Shown here: positions 43,460 through 43,931 of the stretch, piece after piece
How the letters are laid out: each line of letters begins with the position of its first letter
Position numbering within the stretch: position 1 is the stretch's first letter
Origin: Escherichia coli
Lineage (GTDB): Bacteria > Pseudomonadota > Gammaproteobacteria > Enterobacterales > Enterobacteriaceae
Assembly (NCBI RefSeq): GCF_003790525.1
Contig: NZ_CP033635.1
Direction: 5' to 3' (one strand)
DNA length: 64,000 bases
Translations under genes and position numbers: made by a program
The notes under the pieces: generated by a model
Databases searched by the model: none
Told to the model about the DNA's origin: nothing
The model's input: only the letters and a program-made list of their open reading frames with translations

Positions 43460-43931
43460 TGCATCTCCAGAAATCATGAAGGAAACGTCGTTCATATCGG
43501 TGGTGTTAATTACAGATATCACGCCCTTTAATTCGGAAATAAAACTTTAATCACCAATATTGAAAATGTCACACGCAGATAAATCCAACTTTCAATATTG
43601 TTAAGCTCCTCACCAATATTGAAAACATGGCGTAGCAAAAAGAAATTTTCAATATTGTTTTATGGATCACCAATATTGAAAGTCAGATGCTATTTTTTTA
43701 CTCACAATCAAACTCATCACATTGATAAACAATGAATATTTACACAAAAACGCCCTGTTTTTACCCGATAAAAAACTGTGACTAACATCACAGAATGCAG
43801 CCAATTGAATACCCATTATGAGTTAGCCATTAACGCGTCCACGAGGTTAATAATAATTATATTAAATGTTAACAAAAATAAAACAAACGGGAACGCAAAA
43901 TAAATATTCGTTTTCACAGTGGAATTAACTC
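43460..43931. promoter_or_regulatory. cai-fix divergent control region with repeated caatattg-centred motifs
   Basis: AT-rich intergenic region between divergent fixA and caiT; five copies of a palindromic caatattg core within 43551..43681. Confidence 0.75.

Follow-up and report, generated by a model that had tools for sequence, protein, structure and literature searches.

Two known CaiF operators and a conserved unpaired CaiF half-site in the caiT-fixA control region of Escherichia coli

Between the divergent fixA and caiT genes of Escherichia coli lie five copies of a short palindromic core, CAATATTG, and the locus raises the question of which regulator these copies serve and whether all five serve it in the same way. 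A sequence-only reading of the window (the whole stretch of DNA analysed here, 64 kb in length) had assigned the cluster to the cai-fix divergent control region. This placement is borne out by the 521 bp surrounding the repeats, which are 100% identical to E. coli SMS-3-5, where fixA and caiT are annotated on either side. The intergenic region measures 472 bp, and the genes relevant to it are the following:

42689..43459, minus strand: fixA, 256 codons (open reading frame and translation; SMS-3-5 annotation)
43932..45446, plus strand: caiT, 504 codons (open reading frame; SMS-3-5 annotation)
51204..51596, minus strand: caiF, encoding the 131-aa regulator of the repeats (open reading frame)

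CaiF is a small helix-turn-helix activator of the divergent caiTABCDE and fixABCX operons. The protein encoded in the window scores 28.5 bits against the Pfam family PF07180, CaiF_GrlA (cut-off 25), and its sole solved relative is GrlA (4kt5_C, E=0.001). Once activated by carnitine-derived crotonobetainyl-CoA, CaiF acts with cAMP-CRP to switch on both operons from their shared region (PMC12083890; PMC3680233). The sequence-only reading was right that CaiF and CRP act on this DNA.

The repeat cluster and its two CaiF operators

The core begins at 43555, 43593, 43614, 43650 and 43671, which confirms the five copies that had been reported. In the 64-kb window it occurs seven times against 1.22 expected from shuffled sequence, with no shuffle reaching seven, and at the background rate the Poisson probability of at least five copies per 130 bp is about 8e-16. 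Outside the cluster the core recurs at 32841 and 58215, each time alone in a long open reading frame. The start positions that had been given for the longer strings around the cores hold for copies 1 to 3 and are off by one for copies 4 and 5, where TTTTCAATATTG begins at 43646 and TCACC at 43667. The spacing between core starts, described as regular, does follow a pattern, but one that alternates (38, 21, 36 and 21 bp) and is not strictly even.

The copies fall into two orientations. Three are rightward and have the 15-mer TCACCAATATTGAAA in common (43551, 43610 and 43667), lying 59 and 57 bp apart as short direct-repeat families in the E. coli window; the two leftward copies share TTTCAATATTGTT. 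Tandem Repeats Finder detected no array in the window, so that "tandem repeat" would be an unfair label for E. coli. All five copies are identical in K-12 MG1655, from which the window differs over 43540-43690 by only two substitutions, in or adjoining the spacer of the first dyad, and none of 5,388 E. coli genomes falls below 95% identity over this repeat block. Three of the roughly 5,400 E. coli matches to the control region are on plasmid-labelled records. In genome H18 the match is confined to the right half of the block, a sign that it may be disrupted near 43609.

The published CaiF operator, as given in two secondary accounts, is a perfect inverted repeat of 11-bp half-sites, TTTCAATATTG-N13-CAATATTGAAA (PMC12083890; PMC3680233). 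According to Buchet et al. 1999, as quoted in the same accounts, the K-12 cai-fix region contains two such operators, F1 and F2; CaiF is reported to bind both, probably as a dimer, and the binding was measured in K-12 (PMC12083890; PMC3680233). It had been held that the factor behind each repeat could not be told from sequence alone, but the 11-mer CAATATTGAAA is exact in five of the five copies, and the repeats can be assigned to CaiF because they match this published half-site. Four of them pair as follows:

43590..43624, centre 43607: fix-proximal CaiF operator, copies 2 and 3; perfect match to the consensus, half-sites identical in K-12
43647..43681, centre 43664: cai-proximal CaiF operator, copies 4 and 5; perfect match to the consensus, identical in K-12

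The full 35-bp pattern occurs exactly twice in the window, where chance would yield none, and no further CaiF dyad was found in the window with up to three mismatches allowed. The 13-bp spacers occupy 43601-43613 and 43658-43670. Paired cores stand 21 bp apart, about two helical turns, and should therefore face one side of the DNA; the same 21-bp spacing is kept by every perfect-core dyad found in other genera. The arms are inverted and lie between the divergent caiT and fixA genes of a genome that encodes CaiF. Judged by sequence, copies 2 and 3 and copies 4 and 5 are the two known operators F1 and F2 of K-12, with the same sequence, the same locus and a nearby regulator gene, and no difference from the published description. 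Copy 1 is distinct from them, being an exact half-site that lacks a second arm and so is not an F-type dyad.

The main finding is thus already known, since copies 2 to 5 reproduce published operators, and the cluster is a pair of CaiF operators plus one additional half-site. Confirming it yields nothing new, as it is a textbook-level element of one small regulon. What is added here is modest and comparative, namely a conserved copy 1 and a dyad number that varies by genus. The account we consider likely is that all five cores are CaiF half-sites, arranged as two dyads and a promoter-embedded copy 1, with the dyads having arisen as lineage-specific duplications.

Elsewhere in the window, one-mismatch matches to the CaiF half-site occur at 51488-51498 and 13559-13569, both probably by chance. 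The first of these, CAATATCGAAA, lies inside the caiF coding sequence and was set aside as a chance match.

Transcription starts and the fix promoter

The position of each element relative to the two promoters depends on where transcription begins. The cai and fix starts are reportedly 289 bp apart; a perfect CRP site is said to lie at -41.5 of cai and weaker ones at -69.5 and -126.5 of fix, and a 50-bp sequence overlapping the fix mRNA start is said to be required for cai transcription. The starts used here are based on these numbers, attributed to Buchet 1998, plus promoter geometry. The elements concerned are these:

43777..43792, centre 43784.5: perfect CRP box TGTGACTAACATCACA, TGTGA-N6-TCACA with 0 mismatches, at a class II position for the cai promoter
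43599..43614, centre 43606.5: weak CRP-like box TGTTA-N6-TCACC, 2 mismatches, in the spacer of the fix-proximal dyad
43656..43671, centre 43663.5: weak CRP-like box TGTTT-N6-TCACC, 3 mismatches, in the spacer of the cai-proximal dyad
43814-43819, plus strand: cai promoter -10-like CATTAT (element 43814..43826), with an inferred start at about 43826 that fits the CRP box at -41.5

When the perfect box is set at -41.5, the cai start falls at 43826 and the fix start at 43537 (positions accurate to ±1, as the run near 43694 is one T shorter in K-12), and -69.5 and -126.5 of fix land exactly on 43606.5 and 43663.5. The two weak boxes centred there agree in position with the reported CRP site 2 (-69.5) and site 3 (-126.5), and this coincidence makes the reported distances credible. 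With these inferred starts, the dyad centres lie at about -70 and -127 of fix, equivalent to -219 and -162 of cai.

Copy 1 lies closer to fixA than either dyad, within a promoter-like sequence on the fix strand:

43551..43565, plus strand: copy 1, unpaired CaiF half-site; 11-mer CAATATTGAAA at 43555-43565, 15-mer TCACCAATATTGAAA; counterpart in K-12 at about 42298-42312
43544..43572, minus strand: predicted fix core promoter, with -35-like GTGACA (43572..43567), a 17-bp spacer (43566..43550) and -10-like TAAAGT (43549..43544)
43538..43545: conserved block AATAAAAC (GTTTTATT on the fix strand), 4-5 bp from copy 1

No partner arm with three or fewer mismatches is present 13 bp upstream of copy 1, where 43531-43541 reads ATTCGGAAATA; as there is no second arm at that distance, copy 1 is a lone half-site outside the dyad class. 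The predicted promoter implies a fix start at about 43537, which agrees with the reported start-to-start distance of 289 bp. It was the sole minus-strand promoter-like match in a scan of the intergenic region, although the scan as a whole gave three hits against 2.3 expected, which is not above chance. The 17-bp spacer reads TTTTCAATATTGGTGAT on the fix strand and is copy 1 itself, which would thus sit at about -18 to -28 of the predicted promoter. Copy 1 is also the sole CaiF-like sequence in the reported 50-bp region over the fix start. We infer that copy 1 is a putative CaiF target embedded in the predicted fix promoter. Against this, a regulator bound near -23 would be expected more often to repress, and a lone half-site should bind only weakly. 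It may be that copy 1 sets one CaiF subunit against RNA polymerase at fix, with the upstream dyads assisting. The perfect CRP box at -41.5 would serve the cai promoter.

Copy 1 and dyad number across species

A CaiT-based scan of representative genomes gave 80 loci, 56 of them in Enterobacterales with divergent neighbouring fixA and caiT genes. In these 56 the intergenic region is between 324 and 767 bp long and contains 0 to 3 dyads, and the unpaired rightward copy is present with two or fewer mismatches in 54. Nearly all loci of Enterobacteriaceae and Morganellaceae (intergenic length 324-600 bp) have the start of copy 1 at 89-95 bp from the fixA ATG. Dyads are distributed as follows:

0 dyads: Edwardsiella, Hafnia, Budvicia, Leminorella, Limnobaculum, Serratia sp. 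H1w, Providencia heimbachae
1 dyad: Yokenella, Pluralibacter, Trabulsiella, Atlantibacter and others
2 dyads: Escherichia, Salmonella, Citrobacter, Phytobacter
3 dyads: Proteus

Across the 80 loci, those that are caiF-positive have at least one core each and usually several, and both caiF and clustered cores are missing from the caiT loci of Shewanella, Campylobacter, Ferrimonas, Malaciobacter and Desulfovibrio. The caiF gene is found downstream of caiE in Enterobacteriaceae and Morganellaceae. In Hafniaceae and Budviciaceae it lies beyond fixABCX, where tblastn places it at locus positions 500-1000, and the two Salmonella loci gave no caiF hit within 8 kb.

In an unanchored 21-taxon alignment, the best-conserved non-coding stretch is AATAAAAC-N4/5-TCACCAATATTGAA, which joins the conserved block to the unpaired half-site. 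Conservation of the AATAAAAC block extends from Escherichia as far as Proteus and Providencia; Hafniaceae and Budviciaceae have it in the form AAAATAATACC. In a motif-anchored alignment, the mean frequency of the top base is 0.97 over the 15-mer (a value inflated by the anchoring on the motif itself), 0.82 over the left block and about 0.6 over the flanks. In Hafniaceae and Budviciaceae, the conserved copy-1 block reads CAAAATAATACCTAGATCACCAATATTGAA and is the sole CaiF-like element in the region; it lies 250-340 bp from the fixA ATG, which makes a promoter role for the element there conjectural. A search for a small open reading frame between this block and fixA in Hafnia and Edwardsiella found no conserved one on the fix strand, and the 250-340 bp stretch without a conserved frame suggests a long fix leader in these two families. 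On the fixA side of the unpaired half-site, AATAGAAATACCATGATTC is conserved in seven Hafniaceae and Budviciaceae loci (L045, L047, L050, L053, L049, L021 and L044).

Such conservation might be thought to have little to do with CaiF. Copy 1 could be kept as core promoter DNA read by RNA polymerase, either as the spacer of GTGACA-17-TAAAGT or through the TTCAAT -35 of an older promoter, TTCAAT-17-TATTTT, with its resemblance to the CaiF half-site being incidental or a by-product of duplication. Conservation of the GTGACA and TAAAGT hexamers around copy 1 is limited to the Escherichia/Salmonella/Citrobacter clade. Every taxon allows a reading of TTCAAT-17-TATTT(T/C) on the fix strand, with copy 1 overlapping its -35; it may be an alternative, older fix promoter, of which the GTTTTATT block may form the -10. 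Promoter DNA would also be in keeping with the spacing of copy 1, which is fixed relative to GTTTTATT and the fixA ATG but varies relative to the first dyad (38-40 bp), and with the secondary accounts available (PMC12083890; PMC3680233), which name no third CaiF site. Against this, copy 1 matches the CaiF half-site at 11 of 11 positions and the other rightward copies at 15 of 15, the motif is confined to lineages that bear caiF, and spacer DNA is not normally about 97% conserved over four bacterial families. Conservation as promoter DNA alone appears unlikely to us, and a CaiF target is the reading that we retain.

The seven cores of Proteus are spaced 38, 21, 38, 21, 38 and 21 bp apart, and in Proteus mirabilis (L031, 7403-8000) Tandem Repeats Finder reports a 59-bp period with 2.3 copies at 78% identity, which fits duplication of a 57-59 bp unit as the route by which dyads were gained. 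In this scheme dyads would have been added lineage by lineage through tandem duplication of that unit. The same process could in principle have left copy 1 as an inert remnant, a half-unit at the edge of the array, and the direct-repeat families at 59 and 57 bp, the Proteus period and the fact that the fix-side end of the array is always a rightward copy would all suit such an origin. A remnant of this sort is nonetheless very improbable, given that copy 1 is the most conserved copy and not the least, that Hafniaceae, Budviciaceae and Providencia heimbachae retain it although they have no dyad, and that it stays at a set distance from fixA however many units are present. Because of these same three properties, copy 1 appears to be ancestral and not a by-product of duplication.

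A broader proposal, which we offer tentatively and which could well fail, is that the single promoter half-site (TCACCAATATTGAA beside GTTTTATT) is the ancestral and universal CaiF operator, that the CaiF/GrlA family acts inside the core promoter, and that the dyads act as amplifiers particular to each lineage, their count (0, 1, 2 or 3) shifting as a 57-59 bp unit is duplicated. An ancestral operator embedded in the promoter would explain the reported requirement of cai transcription for 50 bp at the fix start. The precedent within the family for a CaiF target inside a promoter is GrlA, whose homology to CaiF is stated in PMC9979310 and which, according to the summary of Islam et al. 2011 in PMC10877973, binds the LEE1 spacer between -10 and -35. 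GrlA at LEE1 P1 of EHEC and EPEC and CaiF at fix are both regulators of the PF07180 family. By that summary, the GrlA target lies between the -35 and -10 of the promoter that it activates, and copy 1 is predicted to lie likewise at fix, but the LEE1 spacer has a sub-optimal length of 18 bp where the predicted fix spacer has the optimal 17 bp. To our knowledge, there is no convincing sequence likeness between the LEE1 spacer and the CaiF half-site.

Copy 1 goes unmentioned in the literature available and yet is kept in almost every cai-fix locus. If CaiF binds it, the working model of CaiF activation would change, a mechanistic tie to a homologue that regulates virulence, GrlA, would be gained, and carnitine biosensors that use the fix promoter would be affected by the result (PMC12083890; PMC8085414).

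CRP, FNR and the cai promoter

The weak CRP boxes are concentric with the CaiF dyads, each taking in the last bases of the left half-site (…TTG) together with the TCAC that flanks its right-hand partner. A weak CRP box in each operator spacer would explain why the rightward half-sites have this TCAC flank. The placement of the boxes within the dyads fits the published co-activation by CRP and CaiF. Divergent catabolic regions with multiple CRP sites likewise have several such sites, with different CRP molecules used by each promoter (PMC3105977); the present region differs from these in that two CRP boxes are concentric with, and inside, the dyad spacers of the specific activator. Both E. coli alleles retain the half-sites of the perfect CRP box, which are conserved in other genera as well. 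A terminator-like hairpin reported by a scan at 43776-43793 is an artefact, in which the CRP palindrome is followed by a T-run on the minus strand.

The sequence-only reading had also listed FNR among the factors that bind in this region, but the sequence does not support this: the best match to an FNR box in the intergenic region (43698-43711) has two mismatches, in a stretch that varies even among Escherichia. Genome-wide work on FNR reports binding upstream of caiF itself and regards the genes of the CaiF regulon as indirect targets (PMC3688515). That the repeats are CRP or FNR sites, or AT-rich nucleation sites for H-NS, instead of CaiF sites is scarcely credible: H-NS is a reported repressor of carnitine metabolism (PMC2131755), the region is AT-rich and the dyads are overlapped by weak CRP boxes, but the CAATATTG cores themselves fit neither TGTGA-N6-TCACA (CRP) nor TTGAT-N4-ATCAA (FNR), the CRP-like matches draw on spacer bases and the TCAC flank and not on the cores, the best FNR-like match is in the non-conserved DNA just described, and the exact match to the published CaiF operator explains the repeats sufficiently.

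Between the CaiF dyads and the perfect CRP box lies a variable spacer:

43700..43776: spacer from the CaiF dyads to the CRP box; sequence highly variable, length constant

About 30% of its positions differ between SMS-3-5 and K-12, with identical flanks, and each Escherichia lineage has a separate version. With 43691-43800 as query, identity among E. coli genomes is bimodal, at least 95% in 641 genomes and 60-80% in 4,538. Old allelic dimorphism, recombination or a constraint on distance only are possible explanations for such a spacer.

Beyond the CRP box, the block GAATACCCATTATGAGTTA at the -10 of the cai promoter is conserved across genera. Near 43801 in the cai core promoter, CCAATTGAATA resembles a CaiF half-site, but it was rejected as one, since not even K-12 conserves its CCAATT part.

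The position of the cai CRP box is occupied differently in some other genera. Budvicia aquatica (L048) has a perfect FNR box, TTGAT-TTCG-ATCAA, where the E. coli box sits, and Hafnia, Edwardsiella, Leminorella and Limnobaculum have TTGAT-TAAG-ATCAC at the same position. The loci with FNR-like boxes are L048, L045 and L047 (Edwardsiella), L050 and L053 (Hafnia), L021 and L044, and the boxes are homologous to 43777-43792. Comparison of these sequences suggests that CRP and FNR control have been exchanged at one position of the cai promoter.
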